Below, piece after piece: positions 6,048 through 57,020 of a stretch of 64,000 nucleotides of DNA. How positions within the stretch are numbered: the stretch's first letter is position 1; each line of letters opens with the position of its first letter. A model generated the notes under the pieces. That model had not been told where the DNA came from. It searched no databases and worked only from the letters and a program-made list of their open reading frames with translations. The translations under genes and the position numbers were made by a program. The DNA comes from a virus. Taxonomy: Duplodnaviria; Caudoviricetes. The stretch lies in IMG/VR virus record IMGVR_UViG_3300026549_000034, positions 96,001 to 160,000 of that record. One strand, written 5' to 3'.

Positions 6048-6054
6048 ATATAAT

Positions 6055-6373: not shown

Positions 6374-6380
6374 AAAATCT

Positions 6381-7961: not shown

Positions 7962-7993
7962 AAAGTAGAATATATATTTTACTATAAAAAATG

Positions 7994-8019: not shown

Positions 8020-8057
8020 TTGTTGTTATATATGCATGAAAAATAAAATATAAGATA

Positions 8058-8069
8058 TATTTTTAATTA
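8058..8069 (+). promoter_or_regulatory. Class B (late-type) promoter candidate TATTTTTAATTA
   Basis: Same 12-mer lies about 20-45 nt upstream of many structural and leader-bearing genes. Confidence 0.55.
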
Positions 8070-8107
8070 TATATAAATGATTTATCATATAAGATTTAAT
8101 ATATAAC

Positions 8108-14047: not shown

Positions 14048-14097
14048 TGACTAAATTCATTATTAATTATAATTATTATATATAAAGGATTTTTTAT

Positions 14098-14283
14098 ATG
14101 AAACATTACAATATATATTATAGAAATAGCAAAATAAACAACTATCCTATATCTGAAAAGGAATTAAAGGATAATATTATAAACAATACTGATAAGTTCA
14201 TATATAAAAAGGATATTATAACTAACAAAATAAATAAAATAAATAAAAATGACATTCATATTGTTGAGTGTATAGTTGTATAA
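14098..14283 (+). CDS. Small hypothetical protein
   Basis: 61-aa ORF tightly packed between tail genes. Confidence 0.6.
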   Translation: MKHYNIYYRNSKINNYPISEKELKDNIINNTDKFIYKKDIITNKINKINKNDIHIVECIVV

Positions 14284-14286
14284 GTT

Positions 14287-14892: not shown

Positions 14893-14904
14893 TTATTAGA
14901 AAAT

Positions 14905-35900: not shown

Positions 35901-37610
35901 TTATTTAGTTTCATTTGCTTTCTTTTCAGCTTCTTCTTTAAATTTCCATGACAATTCATCATCTAATACATGCTTCTTTGCTGGATTAATAAGATATCCC
36001 ATTTTTGTCATGATGTCTCTATTAATAAGTATTTTTTGCTTTTTGTTTCTATTGTCAACTAAAGCAAATTCAGCATTTAATAATTTACGTGATCCTATTT
36101 GAATACATGGTATAAGAACTGTTTTTCTATTTTCAGTTACTTGACCGACAATTGCATTTGATTCACCATGTTTCTTGAAATAATATTTTTTGCCTTCAAT
36201 TACTGCTTCAATTAAAGTACCGTTTTCTTCTAATGAATCACATCCAATTGTACTTGCCTTAGCACCATTTCCTGTATCAAATTTTGCTTCAAGAGTAAAT
36301 TGCTGTTCATTTTCTGTTGTAAATGTAATGTCTTCAAGATAACCTATTGATTTTGGTTCTAATACTAATTCATTTATATCATTAATGTTGTCTAAAAGTA
36401 TCTTTACAAAGTTTTCTCCAATTACTTCAGATATACCGTCAGTACCTGGTGAACTATTATATTCTAATACAACATTATCACCAACTTCTGGATTACTTCC
36501 TGAAACTAACGGCATAATGTCTACAGCACACCATGGCATTCCAGATATTTTAGCAACCTTTAATGCAATTTCCTTTTGTTCTTCAGTCAGTTCAACCTTT
36601 TCTGCAGTTGCACCTAAAGATACATTACTTCTAAAATCACCAGATATCTTTACACGTTTCATAGCCGCAAGTATCTTTTGTTGTGTTCTCATAGTCAATA
36701 CATGTACACGAATATCACCGCCATCAGCTTCTTCCTTCTTTTGTACTAACAATTCAAGATCTTCATCTACTGCAAACATTGCTTGAAGTATAGCTAAAAT
36801 ACCTTTACCATTTGTCATAAATACACCAGTACCGCCATGTCCATCAAGTATTTTTACAACATATTCAAACTTTTCATCTGCTTTTAAATCTTTACCAATT
36901 TCTTTATTTACTCTCTTAAGTTTCTTTGATAATGATTCTTCACCATTCTTAATATCATTTTTAGATACTAAAGTAAAACGTGGTTGTGGAATTTCATATC
37001 TTTCAAGTAATACTGCAGATGTATACTTATTAGATGCCTTCTTTGCCGATTGAATTGGATTTATTACAAAGAATCCCCATGCTTGAAGTTCTTTGATAAG
37101 TTCCATACATTCTTCGGATTCTTGAACTCCAAGACGAGTAATTACAATAGTATCAATATTTGATTGTTCATTGACTTTATATTTTGTCTTATCATCACTA
37201 AATGAAATTTCTTTATCAGTAGCTTTATATGAAATTTCATCAGCAACAAATGTAAATATTTCTATATCTGTATTCTTTACAGCATCATTAAGATTTTTTA
37301 GAGTCTTATTTGTTTTTTCTTCTCTATCATTTGTAAAGAAAAGAATGTTCTTAAAGAAATAATTAGACTGTTCTATTTTGTCCTGAATACTATCTTTAGA
37401 TTCAGAATCTTCCATTTTCTTATTAACTTCATCAGATATGTCATTATCATTTTTCTCATCAGGTTTATCATCCTTAATATCTAATAAATTGTCTAATTTA
37501 GTTTCTTCCTTAGTTTCTTCTTCCTTAATAATATTTTGTCTTTTCTGTTTAAGAGTTTCCATTACTTCTGCAATAGTTTCAGGATCTCTATAGTCATATT
37601 GCTTTTTCAT
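35901..37610 (-). CDS. RimK-like ATP-grasp peptide ligase fused to a C-terminal retropepsin-like (RimB-type) protease
   Basis: NKY, VKILDGHGGTGV, DIRVHV, FRSNVSLG, AVDI, LEYNSSPG; C-terminal AKFDTGNGA...ILINR aspartyl-protease pattern. Confidence 0.85.
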   Translation of the reverse strand: MKKQYDYRDPETIAEVMETLKQKRQNIIKEEETKEETKLDNLLDIKDDKPDEKNDNDISDEVNKKMEDSESKDSIQDKIEQSNYFFKNILFFTNDREEKTNKTLKNLNDAVKNTDIEIFTFVADEISYKATDKEISFSDDKTKYKVNEQSNIDTIVITRLGVQESEECMELIKELQAWGFFVINPIQSAKKASNKYTSAVLLERYEIPQPRFTLVSKNDIKNGEESLSKKLKRVNKEIGKDLKADEKFEYVVKILDGHGGTGVFMTNGKGILAILQAMFAVDEDLELLVQKKEEADGGDIRVHVLTMRTQQKILAAMKRVKISGDFRSNVSLGATAEKVELTEEQKEIALKVAKISGMPWCAVDIMPLVSGSNPEVGDNVVLEYNSSPGTDGISEVIGENFVKILLDNINDINELVLEPKSIGYLEDITFTTENEQQFTLEAKFDTGNGAKASTIGCDSLEENGTLIEAVIEGKKYYFKKHGESNAIVGQVTENRKTVLIPCIQIGSRKLLNAEFALVDNRNKKQKILINRDIMTKMGYLINPAKKHVLDDELSWKFKEEAEKKANETK

Positions 37611-38244: not shown

Positions 38245-39108
38245 ATGTCAGCTAATTTATTTGAAAAATGTGAACCAATTTCTGCTATTTTAGCACCTCA
38301 TGTACAGCAAATGATCATATCAGAATTAGAGGAATCATGTGATAATTTAGAATATCTGTGCATAGGTTCTGTAGGCAAGAAAAAGGATGAAGATTTTAAT
38401 GGTGATATTGATATTGCTATTAAATGCAAAGATATTGAAGAACTTAAAAGAATAATATATCACACTTTTGGACATTTGAATATAGTTATATCTGAAACAT
38501 TATATATTGTTTCTATAGAATATCCTTATATATATGATAATGAAGAAAAATATGTACAGTGTGATTTTATGGTGATGTGGTATACTGATTATACTGCATT
38601 CAGATATTTTTGTCCAAACTATAGAAATGACGAATCAAAGTATAAAGTAGGTGCAAAAATAATGTTAACAAGTATTATATTAAATCATTGTATAAAAGAA
38701 AAAAATAAAGATTTGTTATATGATGAAATAGCTAAGTTTGATTTTAGACCTACTGCATTATATCGATTTATATATAGTAATAGCAGAAAAGCATATAAAG
38801 AAGAATTTGTGACCGCTGACGTAAATAAAATTGTTGAAATGTGTTTTTATGATAATGATAGAAAACATTTTAATTCTGTTGAATCATTATGGGGTGCTAT
38901 TCATAGTGATAATTTTAAATATTCTGATGAAGTAAAACAAATTGAAATGGTATGGTTTGTATGTTGTTTTAGAAAAGGATGGACCTCTATTGTTCCTGAA
39001 GATTTTAAAATAGAATATTGGACAAATGATCAAATATGGTATAATATAAATCAACAAAAAGAAATAAATAAAATAAATGAATTTTTACAACAAGGTAAGG
39101 AAATATAA
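38245..39108 (+). CDS. Pol-beta superfamily nucleotidyltransferase
   Basis: IGSVG...GDIDI and a third Asp in VQCDF. Confidence 0.72.
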   Translation: MSANLFEKCEPISAILAPHVQQMIISELEESCDNLEYLCIGSVGKKKDEDFNGDIDIAIKCKDIEELKRIIYHTFGHLNIVISETLYIVSIEYPYIYDNEEKYVQCDFMVMWYTDYTAFRYFCPNYRNDESKYKVGAKIMLTSIILNHCIKEKNKDLLYDEIAKFDFRPTALYRFIYSNSRKAYKEEFVTADVNKIVEMCFYDNDRKHFNSVESLWGAIHSDNFKYSDEVKQIEMVWFVCCFRKGWTSIVPEDFKIEYWTNDQIWYNINQQKEINKINEFLQQGKEI

Positions 39109-39155: not shown

Positions 39156-39716
39156 ATGTATTTGCTAATTATTGAAGGTACTGATAATATAGGTAAAGAT
39201 ACTTTGAAAAATCAATTGATAGATCTATTTGATACTGTTACATTAATTCATTGTAGTTCACCAAAATCAAGAGGATTTAAGTCTTATGAACAAGATAAGA
39301 CATTCTTAACATATGCTGATAATATTGTAAATGGTGTATATGATGGAACGGAATGTATTATAATGAATAGATCACATTATGGAGAATATGTATATGGACA
39401 AATATATAGGCACAGAAATCCTATAGAAATTTCATCTATGATTAATGATTTTGATAAGCTAATAGATTCGAGAATTGATTTAAAAGTAAAATATATTCAA
39501 TTATTAAGTACATCATTAGAATTAAGAAAGAAATATGATGACAATAAATCATTATCATTAATGGATGAACAAAAAATGGAAATAGAAAATAAGCTTTTTA
39601 TGGATGTATACAATCAATCAAAATTTGATAAAAAGCTTATATATGTAAATGACGGTGACAATTTTAGACGTAAAGAAGATATTTATAAAGAAGCATTAGA
39701 TTTTATAAATTCTTAA
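39156..39716 (+). CDS. dNMP (thymidylate-like) kinase
   Basis: IEGTDNIGKDT P-loop, NRSHYGEYVY. Confidence 0.85.
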   Translation: MYLLIIEGTDNIGKDTLKNQLIDLFDTVTLIHCSSPKSRGFKSYEQDKTFLTYADNIVNGVYDGTECIIMNRSHYGEYVYGQIYRHRNPIEISSMINDFDKLIDSRIDLKVKYIQLLSTSLELRKKYDDNKSLSLMDEQKMEIENKLFMDVYNQSKFDKKLIYVNDGDNFRRKEDIYKEALDFINS

Positions 39717-39741
39717 AATTAGAAAAATATATAAAAGATAT

Positions 39742-40536
39742 ATGAATACAAAAGATATATTTAATATTTTTTTAGAAAAATATAATAATAGAGAATTTCG
39801 TACAATAGGTAATAATGTTCAGCAATCAATAACATTAGAAATTCAAAATGCCCATTTTGAAGTTGATAAACCATGGATTGTTAGAGAACCAAATTATGGC
39901 TATTATAAACGTGAAGAAAAATGGTATTATTCACAATCATTAAATGTTAATGATATTCCTGAAGGTGCACCAAAAATGTGGCAAGCTTGCGCAACACCAG
40001 ATGGATTTATAAATTCTAATTATGGGTGGTGTATATTTTCAAAAGAAAATGGTGATCAGTATAAAAACTGTAAACAACATTTAATTGAAGATCCACATAC
40101 TCGTGAAGCTATTATGATTTATAATCGTCCATCAATGCAACAAGAATATAATAAAAATGGAATGCATGATTTTATGTGTTGTCAGAATGTTCAATATTTT
40201 ATAAATGAATATGATGAATATAATGATATACTTGATTGCATAGTTAATTTTAGAAGTAATGATGCAGTATTTGGATTTAATAATGATGCACTTTGGGCAA
40301 ATCATATATTAGAAAAACTTGCTAATGAATTAAGACCTATTTGGAATAATAAATATGATAAAAATATAGCGGCGGGTCATATATATTGGAATGCCGGTTC
40401 ATTACATATTTATGAAAGACATTTTAAAATTTTAACAGATTTTAATACTAAACAAAATGTCTATAAATATTATGAAGATATTGAAAAACAAAATAACTTA
40501 TTTAGAAAAACCCAAGAATCAATAAATAATGGATAA
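39742..40536 (+). CDS. gp42: dCMP hydroxymethylase (T4 gp42-like)
   Basis: INSNYGW, IMIYNRPSM, DFMC catalytic Cys, RSNDAVFGFNND (cytosine-specifying Asp), WNAGSLHIYERHF closely follow T4 gp42. Confidence 0.92.
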   Translation: MNTKDIFNIFLEKYNNREFRTIGNNVQQSITLEIQNAHFEVDKPWIVREPNYGYYKREEKWYYSQSLNVNDIPEGAPKMWQACATPDGFINSNYGWCIFSKENGDQYKNCKQHLIEDPHTREAIMIYNRPSMQQEYNKNGMHDFMCCQNVQYFINEYDEYNDILDCIVNFRSNDAVFGFNNDALWANHILEKLANELRPIWNNKYDKNIAAGHIYWNAGSLHIYERHFKILTDFNTKQNVYKYYEDIEKQNNLFRKTQESINNG

Positions 40537-41119
40537 AATTCGAGACATAAAATATAAGTTATTAAAAGAACTAAAATGGGATCATATTAAAGAAACTGGA
40601 TATGATTGTAATAGTGGTACAAAATATGTAGAGGTTAAAAATGCATTATTTGAAGTAGATAAAGACAGGATATTCAATACAATTCCTCAACTTTCATATA
40701 TGAGTCCACAATGGTATATAGATAATTATGATCCTATATTAAATAAGAATGATCAATTAAATAAATGTATAAGTAAATTAGTAGAAAATACAAATTCAAG
40801 ACAAGCCGTTATTATAATGGGCGATACTAATGAATTTGATAATATAGATAATACTTTTATATGTACAATGTATATGCATATATTTCTAAATAAGATAAAA
40901 TATGATGTATATGAATTAGAATATATTGTACATATGAGATCTAATGATTGTATAGAATTTATTACTGATTTACAATGGCATAAGAAATTATATAATGATA
41001 TCTTAAATCAATTAAGAGAAAAAACTAAATTAATGATTATGCCAAAAAATATTATATGGAATGCAGACACTATACATTTATATGAACAATTTTTTGAACA
41101 AGCATTAAAAGAATCTTAA
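40529..41119 (+). CDS. Shortened, divergent gp42/thymidylate-synthase-fold paralog
   Basis: SRQAV, FICT, HMRSNDCIEFITD, WNADTIHLYE; lacks the internal segment leading to INSNYG. Confidence 0.8.
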   Translation: MDKIRDIKYKLLKELKWDHIKETGYDCNSGTKYVEVKNALFEVDKDRIFNTIPQLSYMSPQWYIDNYDPILNKNDQLNKCISKLVENTNSRQAVIIMGDTNEFDNIDNTFICTMYMHIFLNKIKYDVYELEYIVHMRSNDCIEFITDLQWHKKLYNDILNQLREKTKLMIMPKNIIWNADTIHLYEQFFEQALKES

Positions 41120-41125
41120 TTTTAT

Positions 41126-41815
41126 ATGAAAAAACTTATTTCAGCTTCTATTATGTGTGCTAAGAACTTATTGAACTTAGAACACGAAATTAAAGAACTA
41201 GAGAAAAACAATATTGATATGTTTCATCTAGATGCTATGGATGGACATTTTGTAAATAATATTACTTTTGGTCCAGACATATTGAACGCTATTCATAAAT
41301 GTGTTACAAAACCTTGTGATTATCATTTAATGATGGATGATCCTTTGACATTTATAGAACGTCTCGAGCTTTCGGCAGATGATATTGTTACAATACATGC
41401 AGAAATTGATCCAGAAAAATTTGATGCAACTATAAAATATTTGAATTCTTTAAAGAAAAGAGGAATTAAGATTGGGGTTGCGATTAATCCAAAAACATCA
41501 ATAGAAGGATTGTATGACTATTTGGAATATATAGACATGATATTAGTTATGCTTATTAATCCTGGATTTGCTGGTCAACCTATTATTGGTGGTATTATGC
41601 AAAAGCCGATATATGTTCGTCAATATTTAGATTCTATAGGGTATGAAAATATAATGATATCTGTTGATGGCGGTGTATCTAATGAACGTGCAGAAATATT
41701 AGCAAAAGGCGGTGTAAATGTATTTGTTGGCGGTACTTCTGGATTATTCAAAAGAAATCAAAATATTAAGACAAGTATTGAAAATTTACGAAAATCATTA
41801 AATACTTCTGATTGA
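41126..41815 (+). CDS. Ribulose-phosphate 3-epimerase family protein, allulose-6-phosphate 3-epimerase (AlsE)-like
   Basis: HLDAMDGHFV, DYHLM, VDGG; AlsE-type SIMC, PGFAGQP and GTSGLF. Confidence 0.88.
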   Translation: MKKLISASIMCAKNLLNLEHEIKELEKNNIDMFHLDAMDGHFVNNITFGPDILNAIHKCVTKPCDYHLMMDDPLTFIERLELSADDIVTIHAEIDPEKFDATIKYLNSLKKRGIKIGVAINPKTSIEGLYDYLEYIDMILVMLINPGFAGQPIIGGIMQKPIYVRQYLDSIGYENIMISVDGGVSNERAEILAKGGVNVFVGGTSGLFKRNQNIKTSIENLRKSLNTSD

Positions 41816-41866
41816 AATTTCTATTTTTAATTAAAGAATTAATTGTTTTTAATATAATAAATTAAT

Positions 41867-43531
41867 ATGAAAGTATTTATAGCAACATCTGGTATAGGTT
41901 CTAGACTTTTAGAACTAACAAAATACACAAATAAGTCAATGATTAAGATAGGTAAGAAGCCAGTTATATCTTATATTATTGATGAATATCCTGAAGATAC
42001 AGAATTTGTAATTACTTTGGGATATTTTGGTGATCATGTACGGCAATATCTTGAATTGGCATATCCAAACAAGAAAATAACATTTGTAACAGTTGATAAT
42101 TATGCAGGTCCAGGATCTTCACAAGTATATTCACAATTACAGGCAGAAAAATATCTTCAAGAGCCTTTTATATATCATGATTGTGATACTATAATTGAGA
42201 ATCTTCAGGATCAAATTCCAATGAAGTTCAATTATAATTTCTTAGTTGGATATGAGACAAATTCGGAATTATATGATGCATTTGATTATGATATTAATAC
42301 AAAGTCAAAATCAAAGAAGTACGAAGTATATGATTTGATTAAGACATATATGAAGCCAGATTCTTTAGTCGGTATGTTGGCTTTTGTCGGTATTTGTGGT
42401 ATATATGATTATAAGGAATTTTGGAAATATATGCACATGGCTTATGAAAATGAACAAGTCCCTTATGATTTCTTAGTATATCATAAATATGGTATGTTTA
42501 AAGATAATTTGAAAGCAATTAAGGTTACTAATTGGGTAGATACTGGAAATATAGCCGGTGTAAAGAATTATCGTAAGCAATGTAAAGATCAATTTTTTAT
42601 ATTAGATAAGAATGATCAGGCAATTTTCATAATCAATAATAAAGTAATTAAGTTCTTTGCAAAAGATGGCGTTGTTGATGATCTTTTGAAACATTATGAA
42701 ACAATTAAAGATTTTTGTCAACCTATAACTGAACATACTAAGAATTTTATATGTTATGATTATATAGATGCTGAGGATGCTATAGTAAAAATGAATCCTG
42801 TTCGTTTTGAAAATTTTTTATATTCATTAAAGAATAATAAATTTTGGTCTAAAGTAGAAAATATTGATGATAAATTGTTTTTTGAGTCTATGAAGAAATT
42901 CTATATAGACAAAAATATGCAACGGGTAAATCAATTTAAAGAATTCTATAAAGTATCTGAAGATGAAGACATATATGTAAATGATATATTGATTCCTAAA
43001 GAATATACTATTGAAAGAATGCTTAATGAAATGATGAATATGAGAGAATGGAAAGAATCTGTTCCTTGTATTTGGCATGGTGATTTTGTATTAGACAATA
43101 TTCTTTATAACCAAAAGGAAGATAAATATATTTTACTTGATTGGAGACCTAATTTTATAAACATTAAAGAATATGGAGATAGAAACTATGATTTTGGTAA
43201 AATGAATCATAATATTACTTTTAATTTCTATAGCGCATATAATGATCTCTATAATGTACAAATAAATGATAATAAGATTTACATTAATATGCTTTGTAAT
43301 AATTATGTATATGAATGTAAAGAAATATTAAAGAAATTTGTAAATGATAATTATAATGTAAGATTTGAATATATTGAAATGATAACTGGTGCATGTTGGG
43401 TAAGTATGTCTCCATTATATTTCTTAAATCCTATTTCTAAACTATTGTTCTATATGGGTAAGCTTACTTTATATATTAATTTGATGAAGCTTCAAAATAA
43501 AAAAATAAATACTATATATGATGAATTATAA
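41867..43531 (+). CDS. Sugar-phosphate nucleotidyltransferase fused to an APH/choline-kinase-like kinase
   Basis: N-terminal SGIGSRL...NKSMI, HDCD, WVDTG; C-terminal HGDFVLDNIL, LLDWR, YDFGK. Confidence 0.85.
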   Translation: MKVFIATSGIGSRLLELTKYTNKSMIKIGKKPVISYIIDEYPEDTEFVITLGYFGDHVRQYLELAYPNKKITFVTVDNYAGPGSSQVYSQLQAEKYLQEPFIYHDCDTIIENLQDQIPMKFNYNFLVGYETNSELYDAFDYDINTKSKSKKYEVYDLIKTYMKPDSLVGMLAFVGICGIYDYKEFWKYMHMAYENEQVPYDFLVYHKYGMFKDNLKAIKVTNWVDTGNIAGVKNYRKQCKDQFFILDKNDQAIFIINNKVIKFFAKDGVVDDLLKHYETIKDFCQPITEHTKNFICYDYIDAEDAIVKMNPVRFENFLYSLKNNKFWSKVENIDDKLFFESMKKFYIDKNMQRVNQFKEFYKVSEDEDIYVNDILIPKEYTIERMLNEMMNMREWKESVPCIWHGDFVLDNILYNQKEDKYILLDWRPNFINIKEYGDRNYDFGKMNHNITFNFYSAYNDLYNVQINDNKIYINMLCNNYVYECKEILKKFVNDNYNVRFEYIEMITGACWVSMSPLYFLNPISKLLFYMGKLTLYINLMKLQNKKINTIYDEL

Positions 43532-44477
43532 TGACATAAAAATAGCTGGTGTAACATGTGCTTTTAATGAATCACAAATGGTAAAATACGTTATGCCATA
43601 TTGGGAACGTATTAAGCCAGATAAATTAATTGTGTATGATAATATGTCAACTGATAATATGTGTGAACTATTAAGAAAATATCCGTATGTAGAAATAAGA
43701 AAATTTGATACTGGCGGTAAATTTAGTGATGAAACACATATTAAAATAAAGTCAGAAACAGCCAAAGAATTAGCAGATGCTGGTTATGATTGGATTTATA
43801 TAGGTGATTTTGATGAAATATTATATACAGAAAATGAAAACTTTAGAGAAGTATTATATGAAATTCAACAAATGGGCGGTAATGTATTTTGTAGAGATAT
43901 GGTATTACCGTTTGATACTACATTAGATGTTTCATTTGATACTAATAAATTACCTCATCAATGTGTACCGAATTATATTACATCTCATGATTGGTCTTCA
44001 TTTTGGGGTTTTTCTAAAGTAACATTAATACATAAGTCAGTACCAAATATACGTTTTAACAATGGGTGTCATCAGGCATATTTTCCGCAAAAAGGAAATG
44101 CTGATTTAGTTGTATTCGGATATCCTATTATTGGTATACATCTAAAATATATTGATTGGAATGTATTGGAAAAGAATTCACATGATAAGCATGATAGAAT
44201 ACAATGGAGAATTCCTGTAGCAAAATCAAAAGTTGATGTTCAATTTACAAAACATTTATATAGTAGATCATGTGGTATGAATAATATAAACAACATGATA
44301 TCTGCAATGAAGAAAAAATTTGATAAAGTAAATGTTAATGTAGATACAACAACTTGGGATAAGTTTAAAGAATATTATGATAATGAATATGATGTAACAA
44401 AAGTTAAATTTAAGCAATATTTAAATAGAACAAATTTTATAACTAAAGATTATTATGAGACAAATAGAAATTCGTAA
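43518..44477 (+). CDS. GT-A fold glycosyltransferase (GT2-like)
   Basis: TCAFNE, VYDNMSTD, WIYIGDFDE, GCH, HLKY. Confidence 0.8.
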   Translation: MMNYNDIKIAGVTCAFNESQMVKYVMPYWERIKPDKLIVYDNMSTDNMCELLRKYPYVEIRKFDTGGKFSDETHIKIKSETAKELADAGYDWIYIGDFDEILYTENENFREVLYEIQQMGGNVFCRDMVLPFDTTLDVSFDTNKLPHQCVPNYITSHDWSSFWGFSKVTLIHKSVPNIRFNNGCHQAYFPQKGNADLVVFGYPIIGIHLKYIDWNVLEKNSHDKHDRIQWRIPVAKSKVDVQFTKHLYSRSCGMNNINNMISAMKKKFDKVNVNVDTTTWDKFKEYYDNEYDVTKVKFKQYLNRTNFITKDYYETNRNS

Positions 44478-45804
44478 AGCAGAAAAGAACATTTTAATTG
44501 GTAAAATTGGAAAGTCAATTAAATTTAAACATTTGGATATTCGTATAGGCGGTGATGCTTGTATGATATTTTATTCATCAATAGCAAGAATGAATCCGGA
44601 GTATAATTTCTTTTGGATTGGTCCTAATCAAATGAATAAATTAAGTGATGAAGAATATGATTATATCTTCCCAAATCATAATGTATATTCAGCATATGAT
44701 TCTAATTATGAAGATCCGAATCATCATCCTTTTTATCCTATTATTAAGTATTTTAAGGACAATAACATTAAGATAGATTTTGCATTACTTATGTCAGGAA
44801 TGTGCTCTGGAATAAATGTACCTAACTTCTTAAGAAGTCCAAAGACAGGAGAATATGTAAAGATACTTAATGCATTCAAAAATTATTGCGGTCCTTATAT
44901 CTATACTCTTAATCAAACTGGAGTACCATTCTATCTTATTTCTGAAGATGCAAGATATATTACAACAAATGCTTCTGACTTATATAATCGAGAAAGAATA
45001 ATCTTCACACAGACTAATGGATATTTTGAACCAATAGAACATATTACTTCAGAAACTGATTGGACTAAGACTACAGAAAAAATTAAATGTATATATGGAT
45101 ATGTAGAAAGAATATTCATGATGGGTCTTGATAAAAATTGGAAAGAAAATATTGATATTGACAGAAAGTTAAATAGTAAAGGAAATAGATTAATTGTAAT
45201 ATCTAATGGTTGTGGTCAAAAGGACATAAATCGTGCAAATGGTGGTAAAAGTTCACGTCTTCCTGGATATAAGAAATATATTATAGACAATCTTAAGGGT
45301 ACAGAATTTGAGAATACTAAGATATATGGACAATGGGACGATAAGACTTATGAAAAATATCCCCAAATAATTGATAAACCATTAGTAGAACTTGATGATG
45401 AGGTGGCTGATGCAAGATATTCATTGGTATATTCTATTATGCCGGGCTTTGTAACCGTAAAAGCATGGGAAATGATTATCAAAGGTCTTATTCCATTTAT
45501 TCATCCAGACTATGATAAAGACAGATTATTAGGTCTTCCAGAATATTGTTATCTTAAAGATGAAAAGGATCTATTAAACAAAATGAGAGAATTGGATTCA
45601 GATAATGACAAATATCTTAAGCTATTAAATGATTGTTTTGCATGTATTTCAGAAGATGATCTTAATGGAAAACGAATGAATAACTTTATATTCAATAAGA
45701 TTTCTGAAGATCTTGGATTTGATTATGTAGAAAAGAATGGTTGTGAATCTATTTTTGATCATTTCTCTAAAGATGTATTTGATTTCAATAAGATTAAAAA
45801 GTAA
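44455..45804 (+). CDS. DNA beta-glycosyltransferase-like protein (T4 BGT fold)
   Basis: YLISEDAR (BGT YLFTDIR), KIYG, GFVTVKAWEM...FIHPDYD (BGT NFITLRVWET...LIDEEFD). Confidence 0.72.
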   Translation: MRQIEIRKAEKNILIGKIGKSIKFKHLDIRIGGDACMIFYSSIARMNPEYNFFWIGPNQMNKLSDEEYDYIFPNHNVYSAYDSNYEDPNHHPFYPIIKYFKDNNIKIDFALLMSGMCSGINVPNFLRSPKTGEYVKILNAFKNYCGPYIYTLNQTGVPFYLISEDARYITTNASDLYNRERIIFTQTNGYFEPIEHITSETDWTKTTEKIKCIYGYVERIFMMGLDKNWKENIDIDRKLNSKGNRLIVISNGCGQKDINRANGGKSSRLPGYKKYIIDNLKGTEFENTKIYGQWDDKTYEKYPQIIDKPLVELDDEVADARYSLVYSIMPGFVTVKAWEMIIKGLIPFIHPDYDKDRLLGLPEYCYLKDEKDLLNKMRELDSDNDKYLKLLNDCFACISEDDLNGKRMNNFIFNKISEDLGFDYVEKNGCESIFDHFSKDVFDFNKIKK

Positions 45805-45806
45805 GT

Positions 45807-46304
45807 ATGGATAAATGTATTGTTATAAGTGATGTAGACGGTTGCCTTACGGATGGCGGATTATACTATACTGAAGAAGGTAAAGTAATGAAACGTTTCG
45901 GTGCCGGTGATCATGAAGGTCTTAAATTATTGAAGAAAAATGGAATATCTGTAGAGTTCATTACTGCAGATAAAGTAGGATATCCTATTGTTGCTAAAAG
46001 AATGAAGGATATGTCTAATTCAACTATTCATATTTTTAATGAGATTGAAAGGTATGATTTTGTAAAGTCATTGAAAAACAAATATGAAACTGTTGTATTC
46101 TTTGGTGATGGGCCTGGCGACGCTTCATTAGCAAGTAAGATGGCATGTGATATATTTGTATGTCCTAATCAATCTCGACAGGAGGTAAAGCTTGTAGCTG
46201 ATTATATTACTGAAACAGATGGTGGACATGGCGCATTCTTAGACATGGCAATATGGGTATCTAAAAAAATAAATAAAGAAAATTATAAAGAATTATATGA
46301 CTAA
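45807..46304 (+). CDS. KdsC-like HAD sugar-phosphate phosphatase
   Basis: DVDGCLTDG, FITA, FGDGPGD, GGHGAF. Confidence 0.88.
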   Translation: MDKCIVISDVDGCLTDGGLYYTEEGKVMKRFGAGDHEGLKLLKKNGISVEFITADKVGYPIVAKRMKDMSNSTIHIFNEIERYDFVKSLKNKYETVVFFGDGPGDASLASKMACDIFVCPNQSRQEVKLVADYITETDGGHGAFLDMAIWVSKKINKENYKELYD

Positions 46305-47577
46305 TAATATAAAATGGGCAGCAATACAACCATTGACTGGTGGTCTATATTTAGGAACAGAAGAAGCTATAGGTCATCCAGCAGAATGGATATTGACATA
46401 TAAAGGATTAAATACAATTAAAAAGGATAAAGCCGATAATGTTACTGGTGTAGGTAATGAAGCATATCTATTAAACTATCTACATAAAGTTGATAGGGAA
46501 GTACCATATTATCAAATGAATAGAAAAATGTTTGATACTAATTTGGATGATATGAATCCGGAAATATTACTTAATGATGAACCTGCTAAGCCAAATTATG
46601 AAAATTTAGATTTAGTAGTTGCATTACCGGTATGTAGTGGATTATCTATGGTTACATCTGCTGGACAAGAAACAAAAGACGGTCGTAATTGTAATATGCT
46701 TTATTTAGCAAAATTGGCATTAACAACAATCAAACCAAAAATTTATATATTCGAAAACGCTCCTACTTTTATGGGTGAACGTGGTGATAGTTTACGAGTT
46801 AGTTTTGAAAAACTTGCTAAAGATAATGGTTATTTAATTGTATATTATAAGACAGATACACATAAACATTATAATTGTCAACGACGTCCAAGAACTTTTA
46901 TATTTTTTATAAGAAAGGATGTAACAAATAATCAATTGCCTGTATTAGATTTTGAAGACAAACCAATGTCTATTCAAGAATTTTTCGACAATATTCCTTA
47001 TGGTTTGACTAATCAAGAAGAATGTAAGCCACGTCCTCATAATTATATATTATTAGATTTCTTCAAAGAAAAATATGGAGAGGAATGGTTTAAGACATTA
47101 GACAATAAGTGCTTAATGAAATTGATAGTAACAGATAAACTATTTGATGAATTATTTGAATATTGTAAGACTTATACAAAAATATCTGAAGATGATATGA
47201 ATAAGTCTATAAAATATTTTAAGCATGTAAAAGATAAGACTGACAGGAAGTTAAATTGGTTTGGTTCAGATATAGTATTTTATAAAAAGGAATTACCGTC
47301 AGTACAATTTAGAAGTATTACAACAACGATGCATCCAAATTGTAAACGAGTATTGACTATAAGAGAAAATCTTGAATTAATGGGAATGCCACATGATTTT
47401 GATTGGTTTGGGGATGAATCTAATCTCCCTAAAATTGCACAAAATGTTCCTGTAAAAACAGCTAAATTTATAATGTCGCAAGCAGTCAATATATTAGAAA
47501 ATAATATCAATATATTTATGGATGGTAATGTTTTATACATAAATAACATTAATAACAAAATTCAGTTAGTGGCATAA
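46297..47577 (+). CDS. C5-cytosine DNA methyltransferase-like protein
   Basis: Atypical motif I QPLTGG, IV PVCSGLS, VI FENAP, VIII QRRPR, IX RVLTIRE...MGMP, X IAQNVP. Confidence 0.8.
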   Translation: MTNNIKWAAIQPLTGGLYLGTEEAIGHPAEWILTYKGLNTIKKDKADNVTGVGNEAYLLNYLHKVDREVPYYQMNRKMFDTNLDDMNPEILLNDEPAKPNYENLDLVVALPVCSGLSMVTSAGQETKDGRNCNMLYLAKLALTTIKPKIYIFENAPTFMGERGDSLRVSFEKLAKDNGYLIVYYKTDTHKHYNCQRRPRTFIFFIRKDVTNNQLPVLDFEDKPMSIQEFFDNIPYGLTNQEECKPRPHNYILLDFFKEKYGEEWFKTLDNKCLMKLIVTDKLFDELFEYCKTYTKISEDDMNKSIKYFKHVKDKTDRKLNWFGSDIVFYKKELPSVQFRSITTTMHPNCKRVLTIRENLELMGMPHDFDWFGDESNLPKIAQNVPVKTAKFIMSQAVNILENNINIFMDGNVLYINNINNKIQLVA

Positions 47578-47599
47578 AAACAATTATTCTTTTTATATG

Positions 47600-47626
47600 A
47601 AATGAGGATCTTAAAGATCCTCATTT
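47600..47626 (+). terminator. Intrinsic terminator closing the modification operon
   Basis: AAATGAGGATCTT-A-AAGATCCTCATTT followed by a T-rich run. Confidence 0.8.
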
Positions 47627-47662
47627 TTATTTTTAAATATAAGAATATGAAACAAAATATTA

Positions 47663-48730
47663 ATGAAAATTTTTCAAATATTATTAAATAAAACAAAAAA
47701 TAGTTCATATAGATATGCTGAAGAATTATATCTATCATTATCATCTATAGAAGATATTGATATTGACCAAAGTATAATAGTTGATAAAAGTGAATTTAAT
47801 CCAGATTTGATAGATATAATTAATTCTTATGATTACGTTTTTATTCATTCAATATCAAAAGATAAAGATTTATATAACATATTAATAAATTTTATTAAAC
47901 CTAAAAAGATATTATTTATTACTCATACTATATTAAAGCAATGGCATAATGATATTAATTTATCATATATTATTCCATTATTGCGAAATGTAAGTAAAAT
48001 AGTAATTAATCCACTTGCATTAGATATAATAAATGAAATTAAGGAAAAAATATCTGATGATCAGTTTAACAAAAAATATGTAGAACTTAAATATGTTTAT
48101 AATTTTTATTTGTTTAATACAATAAATAAAGATAATATCATATCAATGATATCAAATAAGGGAGTACGAACTAATTATGATTTATTCATTAATTTATTTA
48201 AAAACAAAGAAATATTAAATAGAGATTTTATTTGGAAATTATACGGTGTAACAAAGAACATTCAAACTTATTATATTAATGATTTATATATAAACAATAA
48301 AACACAAAAACCTTCATTAATAACTAATTTTGATACAACAGTTATTTCAAAAAATATGATAAATGTATATGGAGAAATAGACAGAAATACATATAAAGAA
48401 GTTATAGAAAAATCATTATTTACATGCAATTTTGATAATGAATCTTATATAAGTTATAATATAATAGATATAATAGGCAATGGATCTATTCCAATAATGT
48501 CAAAAACTGTAGCGCAAAACATAAGAATAAATCAAAAACAAACATTATATGATCTTAAATGCGGTATATTTATTAATGATACATTTGATGAACAAGCTAT
48601 AATAACTATAAATAAATTAGTACAAAGTCCTAATACATACATAAATACATTAAATAAGCATGTAAATATTTTTAAACAAATTTTCAATAATTCAGAAACA
48701 ATCAATAAATTATTACAAAATATAATATGA
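47663..48730 (+). CDS. Degenerate DNA alpha-glucosyltransferase-like (GT-B) protein
   Basis: INSYDYVFIHS, IKPKKILFITH, YNIIDIIGNGSIPIMSK align by eye with T4 AGT; key motifs are altered. Confidence 0.55.
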   Translation: MKIFQILLNKTKNSSYRYAEELYLSLSSIEDIDIDQSIIVDKSEFNPDLIDIINSYDYVFIHSISKDKDLYNILINFIKPKKILFITHTILKQWHNDINLSYIIPLLRNVSKIVINPLALDIINEIKEKISDDQFNKKYVELKYVYNFYLFNTINKDNIISMISNKGVRTNYDLFINLFKNKEILNRDFIWKLYGVTKNIQTYYINDLYINNKTQKPSLITNFDTTVISKNMINVYGEIDRNTYKEVIEKSLFTCNFDNESYISYNIIDIIGNGSIPIMSKTVAQNIRINQKQTLYDLKCGIFINDTFDEQAIITINKLVQSPNTYINTLNKHVNIFKQIFNNSETINKLLQNII

Positions 48731-49431
48731 AAAACATAAATAATTACATATCAGAGAAGCTCAATATAAAAAATATTAAAGTACATCAATATAAGTATTT
48801 TCCAAAGACAAAAGAAGAACTTAGAAAAATCTTAGAAAAAAGATTAGATGAAGACAATAATGCGGATTTGAATGATATTGATGTTAGTGAAATAACTGAT
48901 ATGTCATTACTATTTAATAAGTTAGATCCACATAATATAAATATATCTGGCTGGGATGTAGGTAATGTTACTGCAATGGGTGCAATGTTTAATGGATGTG
49001 ATAATTTTAATTCTGACTTAAGTAAATGGGACGTTAGTAAGGTTACTAATATGGATTCAATGTTTGCTGATTGTGGAGAATTTAATTCTGATCTAAGTGA
49101 ATGGGATGTATCTAAAGTTACAAATATGCAAGCTATGTTTACTAGATGTCATAAACTTGATACCGACTTAAATAAATGGGATGTATCTAATGTTACTGGA
49201 ATGGATTCAATATTTTATGGTTGTAATAACTTTAATTCTGACTTAAGCAATTGGAATGTATCTAATGTTACTGATATGTATAAAATGTTTTATGATTGTA
49301 ACAGCTTTAATTCTGATCTAAGTAAATGGGATGTAAGTAATGTTACTGATATGCGTAATATGTTTTTTGGATGTGATTCGCTAAAAAATAAACCAAGCTG
49401 GTACAAGAATAAAATAAAAATTAAAAAATAA
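48727..49431 (+). CDS. DUF285/BspA-like repeat protein (6 repeats) with EKLNIK leader
   Basis: MKNINNYISEKLNIKNI; 25-aa W(D/N)VS repeats. Confidence 0.88.
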   Translation: MKNINNYISEKLNIKNIKVHQYKYFPKTKEELRKILEKRLDEDNNADLNDIDVSEITDMSLLFNKLDPHNINISGWDVGNVTAMGAMFNGCDNFNSDLSKWDVSKVTNMDSMFADCGEFNSDLSEWDVSKVTNMQAMFTRCHKLDTDLNKWDVSNVTGMDSIFYGCNNFNSDLSNWNVSNVTDMYKMFYDCNSFNSDLSKWDVSNVTDMRNMFFGCDSLKNKPSWYKNKIKIKK

Positions 49432-49452
49432 TATATAATATATATAAATGAT

Positions 49453-50136
49453 ATGAAAAACCTAAAAGACGTCATTATAGAGAAGCTCAATATAAAAAAT
49501 ATTAAAATACAATATACTTGTCATCCAAAAACAAAAGTAGAACTTCAATTAATATTGAGAGAAAGACTATCAAAAGATAATAATGCTAATTTGAATGATA
49601 TTGATGTTAGTGATATAACCGATATGTCTAATTTATTTGAAAAATTAAATCCTCATAATATAGATATATCTGAATGGAATGTATCAAATGTTATCAATAT
49701 GAGTTATATGTTTTATGATTGTCAAAATTTTAACTGTGACTTAAGTAAATGGGACGTAAGTAATGTTACAAATATGATAAATATGTTTTATGATTGCAAA
49801 GAATTTAATTCTGACTTAAGCAAATGGAATGTAAGTAATGTTAAAAAAATGAATGGTACATTTGCTGGCTGTATAAAATTTAATTCTGATCTAAGCAATT
49901 GGGATGTTAGTAATGTTAATAATATGGGTGGACTATTTGCTAGATGCCAAAATTTTAATGCAGATCTAAGTAATTGGAATGTATCTAATGTTCAAAACAT
50001 GGTAAATATGTTTTATGAATGTGAAAAATTTAAAGGCAAAGGATTAGAAAAATGGAAACCAACCAAATTATTAATATATAAGAATATATTTTATAAGACT
50101 CAATTAGAAAAAAATCCTCCAAAATGGTATAAATAA
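49453..50136 (+). CDS. DUF285/BspA-like repeat protein (5 repeats plus a degenerate one) with EKLNIK leader
   Basis: MKNLKDVIIEKLNIKNI; 25-aa repeats. Confidence 0.88.
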   Translation: MKNLKDVIIEKLNIKNIKIQYTCHPKTKVELQLILRERLSKDNNANLNDIDVSDITDMSNLFEKLNPHNIDISEWNVSNVINMSYMFYDCQNFNCDLSKWDVSNVTNMINMFYDCKEFNSDLSKWNVSNVKKMNGTFAGCIKFNSDLSNWDVSNVNNMGGLFARCQNFNADLSNWNVSNVQNMVNMFYECEKFKGKGLEKWKPTKLLIYKNIFYKTQLEKNPPKWYK

Positions 50137-53979: not shown

Positions 53980-54645
53980 ATGTTAAGTAAAATTGATAAA
54001 ATATACATTATATCATATACTAAAAATGATATATCACGACAACATATAAAAGAACAACTTAATTATCATGGAATAACTGACTTTGAATTTATATATACTT
54101 ATAATGTATCTGAAAATATTATAAACAACCCACATAATCTTAGTATTCAGCACCTAAGTGTATCTTTTACTCATTATGATATTATTAAGAAAAGTTATGA
54201 ATTAGGATTAGAAAGAATACTTATTTTTGAAGATGATGTACTTTTTCTACAAGACAAAAAGTTATTTAATGAAGTTTTGAATAAAGGTATAGAATCATCT
54301 GCGGACATATATATGTATGATTATAGTAAAAGAAATACAAATATAGAAAATGTATATGCTTTTATATTAACATCAGGATATATGCTAAATAGAAATGGTA
54401 TGAAGTTTATGATTGATAATTATGAAAATGACCCATTTATAATTGATGAATATTTTTATTATGATGAAACAAATAAATACTTTATAGATAATATATATTT
54501 TAATTTAAATAAAAATTCATTTACTTTATATATTCAGAATAGAAATACAACACTTAAATATGCTGATATACATTTATGTCATCAAGGACCTAATTATTAT
54601 GTAGAAAATGATAATATAAATGAAGACTTATATTTTAAATATTAA
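53980..54645 (+). CDS. Glycosyltransferase family 25-like
   Basis: KIYIIS...R, SFTHYDI, LIFEDDV, GYMLN motifs. Confidence 0.75.
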   Translation: MLSKIDKIYIISYTKNDISRQHIKEQLNYHGITDFEFIYTYNVSENIINNPHNLSIQHLSVSFTHYDIIKKSYELGLERILIFEDDVLFLQDKKLFNEVLNKGIESSADIYMYDYSKRNTNIENVYAFILTSGYMLNRNGMKFMIDNYENDPFIIDEYFYYDETNKYFIDNIYFNLNKNSFTLYIQNRNTTLKYADIHLCHQGPNYYVENDNINEDLYFKY

Positions 54646-54704: not shown

Positions 54705-56606
54705 ATGACAAAGAAAATTGAAGAAAAGTATACATCAATGTCAGAACGTCAACATATATTAAGTCGTTCTGGAATGTATATTGGTTCTATTAAAGAGGAG
54801 GAAAATCAAGTATTTATATATGATGCTGATGAAAATAAGATGATTATGAAGGATGTCATCTATTCACCAGCAATGCTTAAATTGTTTGATGAAATATTGT
54901 CAAACTCATGTGATGAATTCCGTCGCAAAGATAATATGGGATTGACAACTATATCTATACTAATAGATAGAACAACAAATGCAATTACTATTGAAGACAA
55001 CGGCGGTATTCCTATTGTAAAGCATAAGGAAGCAAAAGTATATGTTCCTGAATTTATTTTTGGACAACTTAGAACATCTTCAAACTATGATGATACTGAA
55101 GATAGAAATGTTATTGGAACAAATGGTCTTGGTTCAGTATTAAGTAATATCTTTTCAAAAAAGTTTATTGTAGAATCCGCGGACAAGAAAAACAAACTTC
55201 ATGTAGAATGGACGGATAATATGGAGCATAAATCTGAACCAGTAATCAGTAAATGTTCAGATCATTATACAAAAACTACATTCTATATTGATTTTGATAG
55301 GTTTGACCAAAAGACATTCGGTATTACTGATGATTTTGTATCTATACTTCATAAACGTTGTATAGATGCTGCAGCAGCTAATTTGGGATTAACTATTAAC
55401 TTTACTGAAAAAACAAAAGAAACAACAAATAAGAATAAATGGAAGTTTAAGAAGTTTGAAGAATACATGGAACTTTATTCAGACTACATTGATCTTTCAT
55501 GTATTATATCTTATAAGGATAATAAAAAACAAATTTGGATATGCCCGGACAGTGAAGTTGATGTGGCATTTGTAAATGGTGCGGAATGTTCAAAAGGTAC
55601 ACATATCAAAGCAGTAAGATATCCAGTAGGTCATGTCATTACTGAAATACTTAAAAAGAAACATAAGATAGATGTAACTAATAAAGCAATAGATACTAAA
55701 TATGGAGTGTTTGGAATATTTGATATAAGTAATCCAACATATAGTTCACAGACTAAAGAAGAACTTACAAATTCACAAGATAGCTTCTATAAGGATGGAT
55801 CGGAATTCAAATTGTCTGATGACTTTCTTAAGAAATGCCAGAAATCAGAAATTGTTGATCTGGTAATAGATTGGTATAAGAAAAAATGTGAAGCAGAAGA
55901 TCAAGCAAAAATCCGTAAACTTAATCGTGAAGCAAAGAAACTATTAAGATCTGACAAATTTATTAATTGTACATCAAAGAAAAATAGAGAAAAAGAACTC
56001 TGGGTCTATGAGGGAGACTCCGCCCACACAGGATTCAGAATGGCAAGAAATCCACAAACACAAGCAAGTTATAGAATGAGAGGAGTACCTTTAAATTGTA
56101 TTGGTATGACAGCAACGCAGGTAATGAAAAACCAAGTATTTAATGATATAGTAAATATTATTGGTCTACAATGGGGTCAATATAATAATGTAGATGATTT
56201 GAAATTTGGTAAGTTCATTATTACTTCTGATGCTGACTATGATGGTGATAAGATTGCAAGTCTATTACTTGTATTTGCTATGCATTTTCCTGAGCTGTTT
56301 GATCAAGGATTTATATATAGGGTTGTTACCCCAATTATAACAGCAACTAAAGGAAAAGACCATAGAGTTTATTATACCAGAGAAGAATATGAAAAAGATT
56401 CTAAAAAACTTAAAGGATATGTCATAAAGTATTTGAAAGGAGTAGGTACACAAACTAATGCAGATACTAAAGAAATGATGACAAATCCTAAACTTATTAA
56501 ATTTACTAAAGACAATATGGCTGAACTTATGATTAAGAAATGGTTTGGTAAGGGTGAAGCAAGTACAAGAAAGAGTATATTAAAAGATGATGTAGAAGCA
56601 GAATAA
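54705..56606 (+). CDS. Type II DNA topoisomerase, ATPase/TOPRIM subunit (T4 gp39+gp60-like)
   Basis: GMYIG, EILSNSCDE, DNGGIP, TSSNYDD, GTNGLG, EGDSA, DADYDG, KGVGT. Confidence 0.95.
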   Translation: MTKKIEEKYTSMSERQHILSRSGMYIGSIKEEENQVFIYDADENKMIMKDVIYSPAMLKLFDEILSNSCDEFRRKDNMGLTTISILIDRTTNAITIEDNGGIPIVKHKEAKVYVPEFIFGQLRTSSNYDDTEDRNVIGTNGLGSVLSNIFSKKFIVESADKKNKLHVEWTDNMEHKSEPVISKCSDHYTKTTFYIDFDRFDQKTFGITDDFVSILHKRCIDAAAANLGLTINFTEKTKETTNKNKWKFKKFEEYMELYSDYIDLSCIISYKDNKKQIWICPDSEVDVAFVNGAECSKGTHIKAVRYPVGHVITEILKKKHKIDVTNKAIDTKYGVFGIFDISNPTYSSQTKEELTNSQDSFYKDGSEFKLSDDFLKKCQKSEIVDLVIDWYKKKCEAEDQAKIRKLNREAKKLLRSDKFINCTSKKNREKELWVYEGDSAHTGFRMARNPQTQASYRMRGVPLNCIGMTATQVMKNQVFNDIVNIIGLQWGQYNNVDDLKFGKFIITSDADYDGDKIASLLLVFAMHFPELFDQGFIYRVVTPIITATKGKDHRVYYTREEYEKDSKKLKGYVIKYLKGVGTQTNADTKEMMTNPKLIKFTKDNMAELMIKKWFGKGEASTRKSILKDDVEAE

Positions 56607-56694
56607 TTAATTATAAAGGAGATATTTTTTATCTCTTTTATATTAAATTGCAAAAATAATATTATTATTAATTAAATAATATAATTATTAAATT

Positions 56695-56901
56695 ATGAGA
56701 TATATAGTTAAAAAGAATATATATACAAATGAAATTGAAGATTGTTGGGATTCATTAAAAAAATGTGCAGATGAAATTGGAGTAAAACCGCCAACAATTA
56801 AACAAGCAATTCGTACAAAAGGTAAATGTAAAAATTATTTTTTTGCATATAAAGAATTAGACAAAAAATATATTTTAGAATTATTAAAAAATGACAGATA
56901 A
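56695..56901 (+). CDS. Small NUMOD1-like helix-turn-helix protein
   Basis: WDSLKKCADEIGV...IKQAI...KCKNYFFAY. Confidence 0.6.
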   Translation: MRYIVKKNIYTNEIEDCWDSLKKCADEIGVKPPTIKQAIRTKGKCKNYFFAYKELDKKYILELLKNDR

Positions 56902-57020
56902 TGATGCTATAAATTGTTGGACTATACGAGATGTATTGAAACGAAATACTGCTAAACAAAACAATTTAAATTATTTGAAATTTTTTACTATATTAGAATT
57001 AGAAAATTGGTTAAAAACAT

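Follow-up and report, generated by a model that had tools for sequence, protein, structure and literature searches.

The 64,000-nucleotide stretch of DNA analyzed here (the window) covers bases 96001-160000 of a 193-kb phage record in IMG/VR (IMGVR_UViG_3300026549_000034), and it carries an operon of nine genes at window positions 39156-47577. We interpret this operon, with moderate confidence, as a jumbo-phage cassette for the hypermodification of cytosine in DNA, one that joins the T4 route to 5-hydroxymethylcytosine (hmC) with phage-encoded sugar activation in the style of RB69 and HY126. Most likely, the phage replaces cytosine with hmC and decorates it with a sugar that it activates itself; in all probability this is a rare sugar with six carbons that is not known from DNA so far. 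A first-pass annotation, made from the letters and their open reading frames (ORFs), had proposed a cytosine hypermodification cassette with its own nucleoside diphosphate (NDP)-sugar branch, and that proposal is supported here. Functional assignments throughout are based on homology and genomic context.

The source record is approximately 68% complete according to CheckV; the GC content is about 26%. Its close relatives are contigs of 158-410 kb, and the source is therefore considered a jumbo phage. Genes for baseplate, lysozyme, clamp-loader-like, and topoisomerase proteins flank the operon region. All nine ORFs lie on the + strand, with gaps of no more than 51 nt and four overlaps of 8-23 nt, a layout in which the operon is translationally coupled. 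The packed, co-directional genes and the terminator described in the first-pass annotation were recovered with exact ORF coordinates, the terminator as a hairpin followed by a run of T (Table 1). The nine family calls held as well: seven by Pfam or NCBIfam, ORF1 by a family profile, and ORF7 by its fold. However, the limits first drawn for the cassette were too small, as a gene resembling that of the T4 alpha-glucosyltransferase (AGT), here called ORF10, follows the terminator. The arrangement is not a product of chance, because a 410-kb, 97%-complete relative (L004) has the same nine genes in the same order, and subsets of them recur in more than 20 viral contigs.

Table 1. Features of the operon and of the gene that follows it, in window coordinates (GT, glycosyltransferase; BGT, beta-glucosyltransferase).
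Feature	Position	Strand	Basis or description
ORF1, 186 aa, thymidylate-kinase-like P-loop nucleotide kinase	39156-39716	+	P-loop EGTDNIGKDT; family profile
ORF2, 264 aa, T4 gp42-type deoxycytidine monophosphate (dCMP) hydroxymethylase	39742-40536	+	PDB 1b49, E 5e-56
ORF3, 196 aa, short thymidylate-synthase-fold paralog	40529-41119	+	Pfam Thymidylat_synt 1e-6; 1b49 5e-8
ORF4, 229 aa, RPE-family epimerase with AlsE-type features	41126-41815	+	Pfam Ribul_P_3_epim 2e-48
ORF5, 554 aa, fusion of sugar-1-phosphate nucleotidyltransferase and APH-type sugar kinase, AfhE-like	41867-43531	+	Pfam, NCBIfam
ORF6, 319 aa, GT-A glycosyltransferase, accessory	43518-44477	+	Glyco_tranf_2_4 4e-11; DxD-like motif DFDE
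ORF7, 449 aa, BGT-like GT-B	44455-45804	+	AlphaFold pLDDT 93.6; fold match to T4 BGT
ORF8, 165 aa, KdsC/KDN-9-P-phosphatase-like HAD phosphatase	45807-46304	+	TIGR01670, NF058599, motif
ORF9, 426 aa, divergent C5-cytosine-methyltransferase-like protein	46297-47577	+	Pfam DNA_methylase 1e-15
Intrinsic-terminator-like hairpin	47599-47627	+	13-bp stem, 3-nt loop, T-rich tail; 22 nt past the last stop codon of the operon
ORF10, 355 aa, T4 AGT-like GT-B, outside the span first reported, just past the terminator	47663-48730	+	AlphaFold pLDDT 84.2

The acceptor base and the predicted DNA glycosyltransferases

The acceptor base is indicated by ORF2, which has 55%-class similarity to T4 gp42. Its DFMC motif (catalytic Cys148, with Asp at -3), its RSND motif (Asp169-equivalent), and its NND motif (Asp179; T4 reads RND) all align to 1b49. 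The Asp three residues before the catalytic Cys stands at the ThyA Leu143 position, as it does in T4, and an acidic residue at this position gives a hydroxymethyl rather than a methyl product (PMC13326640). Because ORF2 keeps the catalytic Cys, the Asp upstream of it, Asp169, and Asp179, it is assigned as a hydroxymethylase, with hmC as the predicted acceptor base. This agrees with the base named at the outset by the first-pass annotation, for which the homology of ORF2 to gp42 and these active-site residues now speak together.

We also considered ORF2 as a synthase for 5-hydroxycytosine (5hoC). RB69, DLP3, and others make arabinosyl-5-hydroxycytosine, not arabosyl-hmC, and do so with a flavin-dependent thymidylate-synthase homolog (PMC13326640); an earlier description of RB69-type phages as arabinosylators of hmC had to be corrected on this point. 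The mark of 5-hydroxy-dCMP (5hodCMP) synthases is a change of Asp169 to Asn in E. coli ThyA numbering (PMC13326640). RB69 gp48, the 5hodCMP synthase that served as a control, reads RSQN and is 22% identical to ORF2, while ORF2 and ORF3 both read RSND. As Asp169 is kept, this candidate was rejected.

The supply of the modified nucleotide is predicted to continue with ORF1, which would convert hydroxymethyl-dCMP (hm-dCMP) to the diphosphate hm-dCDP. No Pfam or PHROG match was found for ORF1. A family profile made from ORF1 and five locus homologs matches RB69 gp45, the “nucleotide kinase” of the arabinosylation cluster, at E 1e-11, and a minority of the members in the nearest Atlas clusters carry Thymidylate_kin/PPK2. 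Apart from these genes, the pyrimidine pool is represented only by a dUTPase-family gene (window 4676-5197, + strand) and, elsewhere in the record, a dCMP deaminase (G000:C1:171934-172398). The dUTPase-family protein could be a functional dCTPase.

Scans with Pfam, PHROG, and NCBIfam returned no glycosyltransferase family for ORF7; its 350 homologs are all unnamed, and its family profile does not match RB69 gp46/47. By fold, T4 BGT is its top match with both Foldseek and VIA (Z 22.5 and root-mean-square deviation (rmsd) 3.9 Å over 315 of 344 residues), at approximately 12% identity. The next family, the GT4 enzymes, starts at Z 17.8, which is 4.7 lower than BGT. The fold thus bears out the BGT-like call made at first, and from its model ORF7 is predicted to be a DNA hmC glycosyltransferase. 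ORF10, which has no Pfam match, is structurally closest to T4 AGT (Z 29.7, rmsd 3.5 Å, 333 residues; next family Z 20.3; approximately 12% identity). Its activity as an AGT-like transferase is uncertain.

The nearest structures of ORF7 and ORF10 are therefore the two T4 DNA glucosyltransferases, each with a clear margin, and in phage lineages that are unrelated to one another, ORF7-like genes adjoin those for thymidylate-synthase homologs, nucleotide kinases, and DNA-methylase-like proteins. Together with the translational coupling of the operon, this argues against a target other than DNA. Under such an alternative, the sugar branch and the transferases would act on phage or host proteins or on cell-envelope polymers, and a DNA role would be left for ORF1-ORF3 (perhaps ORF9) only. 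It is true that the synthesis of envelope glycans typically involves GT-A, GT-B, and KdsC-like enzymes, that a family 25 glycosyltransferase gene (GT25, of the lipopolysaccharide type) lies nearby at 53980-54645, and that two DUF285 surface-type genes stand downstream of the cluster. Nevertheless, we give this alternative hardly any weight.

The sugar branch

ORF4 is predicted to be a hexulose-6-phosphate 3-epimerase. Its best PDB match is E. coli AlsE (3ct7), with 137.7 bits as opposed to 127.3 bits for the best RPE, and its catalytic His/Asp/His/Asp residues align to those of AlsE. The phosphate-binding loop at beta8, GTSGLF, is identical to that of AlsE and aligns to it without a gap, whereas each of five RPE structures needs a gap of one residue. 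This long AlsE-type loop is also found in the epimerases of L003, L004, L009, and L036, and the extra loop residue reportedly adapts AlsE to a longer substrate.

The first-pass annotation had seen no arabinose-5-phosphate isomerase (API), and its absence was upheld more widely: no SIS protein or API of the KpsF/KdsD type was found in the record or in the 97%-complete relative (G002). In L009 and L036, a module is present that consists of phosphatase, SIS, epimerase, nucleotidyltransferase-kinase, GT-B, and methylase-like genes. The SIS proteins of these two loci match the 6-phospho-3-hexuloisomerase model at 1e-33/1e-34 and KpsF/API at only 1e-4; RB69 gp55, used as a control, matches KpsF/API at 2e-32. 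Given the AlsE-length loop in ORF4 and the hexuloisomerase-like SIS proteins in sister clusters, we infer that the sugar derives from a hexulose 6-phosphate. The same two features, the GTSGLF loop and the sister SIS proteins, favor the allulose- or allose-type sugar suggested initially, but the identity of that sugar is still conjecture.

The gene that commits a cluster to its sugar varies among lineages. It may be an epimerase, an epimerase together with a hexuloisomerase-like protein, or, in lineage L011, a mannose-6-phosphate-isomerase-type cupin at the place of the epimerase. The nucleotidyltransferase-kinase, the HAD phosphatase, and the GT-B are constant across the clusters. The design looks modular, with a variable sugar-phosphate enzyme that feeds a constant core for activation and transfer.

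The cluster of L011 is a distant one, and its positions 5620-15169 hold in one row the mannose-6-phosphate-isomerase-type cupin, a nucleotidyltransferase-kinase, a 288-aa dUTPase-domain protein, a kinase, and a phosphatase, along with GT-B, methylase-like, gp42-like, and dCMP deaminase genes. L010, a relative whose ORF7 counterpart is 50% identical, carries at 4155-5896 a gene of the TET-associated-glycosyltransferase family (PF20691) and a stand-alone APH-type kinase beside a nucleotidyltransferase-kinase and a phosphatase. No epimerase was present within the DNA fetched for L010.

In ORF5, Pfam places NTP_transferase at residues 7-40 and Fructosamin_kin/APH at residues 381-465, with the motifs GxGSRL and HGDxxxxN, and the N-terminus also matches nucleotidyltransferase models of NCBIfam. 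The ORF5 family profile matches the kinase domain of RB69 gp52 at E 2e-14 (hidden Markov model positions 256-524); with this profile, no match was found between the N-terminal domain and RB69 gp53. AfhE of the RB69 type is reachable from ORF5 by profile only, not by pairwise search. ORF8 carries the motif DVDGCLTDG and matches NF058599 at 1e-19 and TIGR01670 at 2e-20, the latter with 73.2 bits, below the cut-off of 106.95. Its family profile does not match RB69 gp51. In the characterized Afh pathway, an isomerase makes arabinose 5-phosphate, a kinase converts it to the 1,5-bisphosphate, a HAD phosphatase removes the 5-phosphate, and a nucleotidyltransferase yields uridine diphosphate (UDP)-arabinofuranose (PMC13326640). 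In that pathway the kinase precedes the phosphatase, whereas the first-pass annotation had listed the phosphatase ahead of the kinase.

A different use of ORF5 would be to activate a non-anomeric phosphate, in the manner of cytidine diphosphate (CDP)-ribitol or CDP-glycerol, so that hmC receives a phosphodiester-linked sugar or sugar alcohol and not an O-glycoside. Such a route could dispense with the sugar kinase and the phosphatase, but these two enzymes are conserved alongside the nucleotidyltransferase, and ORF7 is far closer to the Leloir enzyme BGT than to phosphotransferases of the TagF type. We consider it very unlikely for these reasons, even though a ketose 6-phosphate is without an easily phosphorylated aldose C1, nucleotidyltransferases of the same fold include activators of alditol or ketose phosphates (general knowledge), and the distant cluster L015 has a cytidylyltransferase-like gene between its GT-B and methylase-like genes.

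Several observations weigh against a self-activated hexose on fully replaced cytosine. ORF4 falls below the NCBIfam equivalog cut-offs for AlsE (NF007266, 177.1 vs. 271) and for rpe (TIGR01163, 184.7 vs. 212.6), and passes only the general RPE subfamily model NF004076 (185.6 vs. a cut-off of 165). AlsE and RPE are also said to be mutually promiscuous. A ketose 6-phosphate would need phosphorylation at C2, and we know of no precedent for this among APH-type sugar kinases. ORF8 appears to belong to a HAD subfamily other than that of the Afh phosphatase, and the Afh step order may therefore not hold here. With regard to complete replacement of cytosine, neither MazG nor a MazG-like dCTPase was found in the record or in the 97%-complete relative, although this negative does not imply an untouched dCTP pool. 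Finally, ORF3 and ORF9 are conserved, and the model gives them no role.

Alternatively, the same cassette might deliver a pentose. ORF4 would then act as an ordinary ribulose-5-phosphate/xylulose-5-phosphate epimerase to enlarge or redirect the pentose-phosphate pool, and hmC would end up with an arabinose-, ribulose-, or xylulose-type modification, made with the help of a host isomerase if needed. Besides passing the RPE subfamily model, ORF4 scores as high with rpe as with AlsE models, and every characterized phage pathway with an AfhE-like enzyme yields UDP-arabinofuranose. A cytosine-linked pentose is known in the Shewanella phage Thanatos (PMC12838424). However, all the cluster epimerases have the long AlsE-type loop, the isomerase of the sister clusters is hexuloisomerase-like and not API-like, no API was found in the 97%-complete relative, and xylulose 5-phosphate cannot cyclize to expose an anomeric hydroxyl (general chemistry). 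A pentose thus appears rather unlikely, though it is the alternative that we take most seriously, and a hexulose 6-phosphate is the preferred origin of the sugar.

Conserved partners, relatives, and neighboring genes

ORF9 is a conserved partner of ORF7, since an ORF9-like gene is present in 16 of the 21 ORF7-like viral loci. A gp42-like gene was seen in 11 of them, both counts being for the DNA fetched and including identities down to 23-30%. The GT-B and methylase-like genes are often adjacent in these loci, and a further lineage (L035/L036), reached through the epimerase, also has GT-B, methylase-like, and gp42-like genes. The Pfam alignment of ORF9 covers profile positions 38-321 only. Across 15 family members, the catalytic Cys (Cys113 in ORF9), ENAP (motif VI, canonically ENV), QxRxR (motif VIII), RE, and QNVP (motif X, canonically GNxVP) are invariant. 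Motif IV reads PVC, or PC in distant members, and motif X starts with Gln, not Gly. The cofactor motif I is an invariant PLxGG, not FxGxGG, with Leu replacing the first Gly.

We looked for a TET/JBP gene and found none in the record or in the 97%-complete relative. Consequently, the methylase-TET-GT logic described elsewhere (PMC8256090) is inapplicable, and ORF9 as the methylase of such a route was rejected. A prediction of the complex of ORF7 and ORF9 gave a score of 0.00, which speaks neither for nor against binding. Another copy number is seen in L009, which has two methylase-like genes (1270-2535 and 8728-9996, approximately 40% identical to ORF9), a GT10-like gene, and a separate nucleotidyltransferase.

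ORF3 is without about 40 residues that match T4 gp42 65-106, a segment in which the INSNYGW stretch lies. Its family comprises proteins of approximately 180-200 aa, with 85 representatives at E<1e-3, in which the Cys, an Arg, an Arg-Ser, and the equivalent of Asn177-to-Asp (cytosine-specifying) are invariant. The gene of one other family member is flanked by that of a thymidylate-synthase homolog on one side and by nucleotidyltransferase and HAD genes on the other. The possibility that ORF3 is a decayed pseudogene was rejected, as the family is conserved and its active-site residues are intact. L004 has both ORF3 and the GT-A ORF6, and L003 has neither.

What might these two proteins do? Wherever hmC has taken the place of cytosine, ORF9 would be without free C5 positions; with its motif I altered and no TET partner, other chemistry is possible. 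One speculative scheme, which we regard as improbable, ends in a base other than a simple O-glycosyl-hmC. In it, ORF9 would attack C6 of hmC in DNA covalently, together with the BGT-like enzyme, and ORF3, whose folate site is deleted, would carry out similar chemistry on nucleotides. The two would thereby introduce or swap a substituent at the 5-methylene carbon, with an allulose-type ketohexose, activated at C2, as the sugar. If this were true, both the enzymatic chemistry and the DNA base would be new.

Parts of the cassette are found in cultured phages. The Pseudoalteromonas phage vB_Psh_XG4 has a trio of gp42-like, ORF7-like, and ORF9-like genes. In the Enterococcus Denvervirus phages (Planchet, 9183), an ORF7-like gene occurs together with genes for a kinase, a thymidylate-synthase homolog, and a nucleotidyltransferase-kinase, and cyanophages of the S-TIM5 group have an ORF9-like gene near ThyA. 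The epimerase branch is present in none of these cultured relatives. Among viral contigs, a single-sequence scan found no relatives of the epimerase, and an alignment-based scan found only five loci. With tblastn against cultured phages, ORF5 matched one uncultured marine virus only, and ORF6 had no match.

The surroundings of the operon hold other genes of potential interest. Immediately upstream, 47 nt before ORF1 and co-directional with it, a gene at window 38245-39108 (+ strand) carries the signature of a Pol-beta-type nucleotidyltransferase (GS...DIDIA). The Atlas clusters closest to it are of viral “nucleotidyltransferase,” and neither L003 nor L004 keeps this gene ahead of the cluster. 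On the opposite strand, 1.5 kb upstream, a 569-aa protein (window 35901-37610, - strand) has an ATP-grasp domain of the RimK/glutathione-synthetase type (1.5e-24). Downstream, the two DUF285 (BspA-like repeat) genes are paralogs that follow the AGT-like gene at window 48727-50136 (+ strand), and the first overlaps its stop codon. The GT25 gene (+ strand; Pfam 3.8e-10) immediately precedes the genes for topoisomerase II subunits (54705-58421) and, no more than 11 kb from the operon, adds a fourth class of glycosyltransferase. Finally, the structural region contains an ORF of 1979 aa (window 8108-14047, + strand).

Proposed pathway and relation to known systems

In the pathway that we propose, two branches would meet on the DNA. 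Before replication, ORF2 would turn dCMP into hm-dCMP, as its homology and diagnostic residues suggest, and ORF1 would phosphorylate this product, so that the phage polymerase may incorporate hmC. In the sugar branch, ORF4 would divert a host hexulose 6-phosphate, most simply by converting fructose 6-phosphate to allulose 6-phosphate. The kinase domain of ORF5 and the phosphatase ORF8 would then produce a sugar monophosphate with its phosphate on the anomeric carbon, from which the nucleotidyltransferase domain of ORF5 would make the NDP-sugar. This would parallel the Afh sequence from arabinose 5-phosphate through arabinose 1,5-bisphosphate and arabinose 1-phosphate to UDP-arabinofuranose, although the step order, the sugar, and the nucleotide are all inferred here. 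After replication, the BGT-like ORF7 would transfer the sugar to the hydroxymethyl group of hmC in DNA. An optional GT-A, ORF6, and perhaps the AGT-like ORF10 as well, may lengthen the glycan or make it more varied. The finished modification would protect the phage DNA from restriction and related nucleases.

The closest comparison is with the Afh systems of RB69, DLP3, and HY126 (PMC13326640). Both have a thymidylate-kinase-like nucleotide kinase, a thymidylate-synthase homolog, a HAD phosphatase, a sugar-phosphate isomerase or epimerase, and one or more GT-B DNA glycosyltransferases. The nucleotidyltransferase and kinase are fused in ORF5 as in AfhE, DLP3 gp82, and RB69 gp52:53. Homology is detectable between ORF1 and RB69 gp45 and between the kinase domain of ORF5 and RB69 gp52. 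However, the predicted base here is hmC (Asp169 kept), while it is 5hoC (Asp169Asn) in Afh. The committed sugar enzyme is an AlsE-like epimerase and not an arabinose-5-phosphate isomerase, the phosphatase appears to be of the KdsC type and not of the EcbF/BcbF type, and the GT-B is BGT-like and not GT4-like. The C5-methylase-like protein, the short thymidylate-synthase paralog, and the GT-A are additional to the Afh set.

With the T4 system for glucosyl-hmC (gp42, gp1, BGT, and AGT), the cassette shares a close gp42 homolog in ORF2, and BGT and AGT are the nearest structures of ORF7 and ORF10. T4, in contrast, uses host UDP-glucose and has no sugar-activation genes (established knowledge), and the nucleotide kinase of the present cassette is thymidylate-kinase-like, not gp1-like. 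Similar gene contents are also known from metaviromic C5-MT/TET/GT and ThyS/GT clusters (PMC8256090; 10.1101/2023.12.21.572611), where GT-A or GT-B enzymes occur with a source of 5-hydroxymethylcytosine, sugar epimerases, APH phosphotransferases, and methyltransferases. In a metagenomic survey, GT-B enzymes were preferentially located beside thymidylate synthase homologs (10.1101/2023.12.21.572611). The clusters put to the test there draw on the sugar nucleotides available in E. coli or depend on NDP-sugar epimerases. Their methylase feeds a TET oxygenase, whereas here no TET/JBP was found and hmC would be made at the nucleotide level, which leaves the methylase-like ORF9 without its known role. 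AlsE itself is a catabolic enzyme in the allose operon, unlike ORF4, which stands in a phage DNA-modification operon.

The first-pass annotation had stated that it knew no described phage base of this kind. This holds for the particular combination of genes but not for the kind of cluster, as phage thymidylate-synthase homologs with DNA glycosyltransferases and phage-encoded sugar activation are known from RB69, DLP3, HY126, and the survey (10.1101/2023.12.21.572611). New are the joining of a T4-type hydroxymethylase to an Afh-type activation module and the AlsE-like entry into the sugar branch, which is hexuloisomerase-like in relatives. The conserved PLxGG methylase-like partner and the family of short thymidylate-synthase paralogs are also new.

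The escape of a phage from restriction enzymes, CRISPR nucleases, and modification-dependent (type IV) systems depends in large part on cytosines that carry sugars. Every new sugar of this sort has also brought new enzymes for biotechnology, for example in the labeling of hmC. The PLxGG methylase-like proteins and the short thymidylate-synthase paralogs are phage-restricted families with clear active-site residues that can be mutated, and the proteins of the cassette are small and soluble-looking, which suits the E. coli reassembly platforms used for such clusters. For phage biology, the cassette indicates that the RB69-type module by which a phage makes its own NDP-sugar combines also with the classical hmC route. 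The committed sugar gene appears to be exchangeable, which leads us to expect a series of as yet unobserved DNA modifications of the hexose type.

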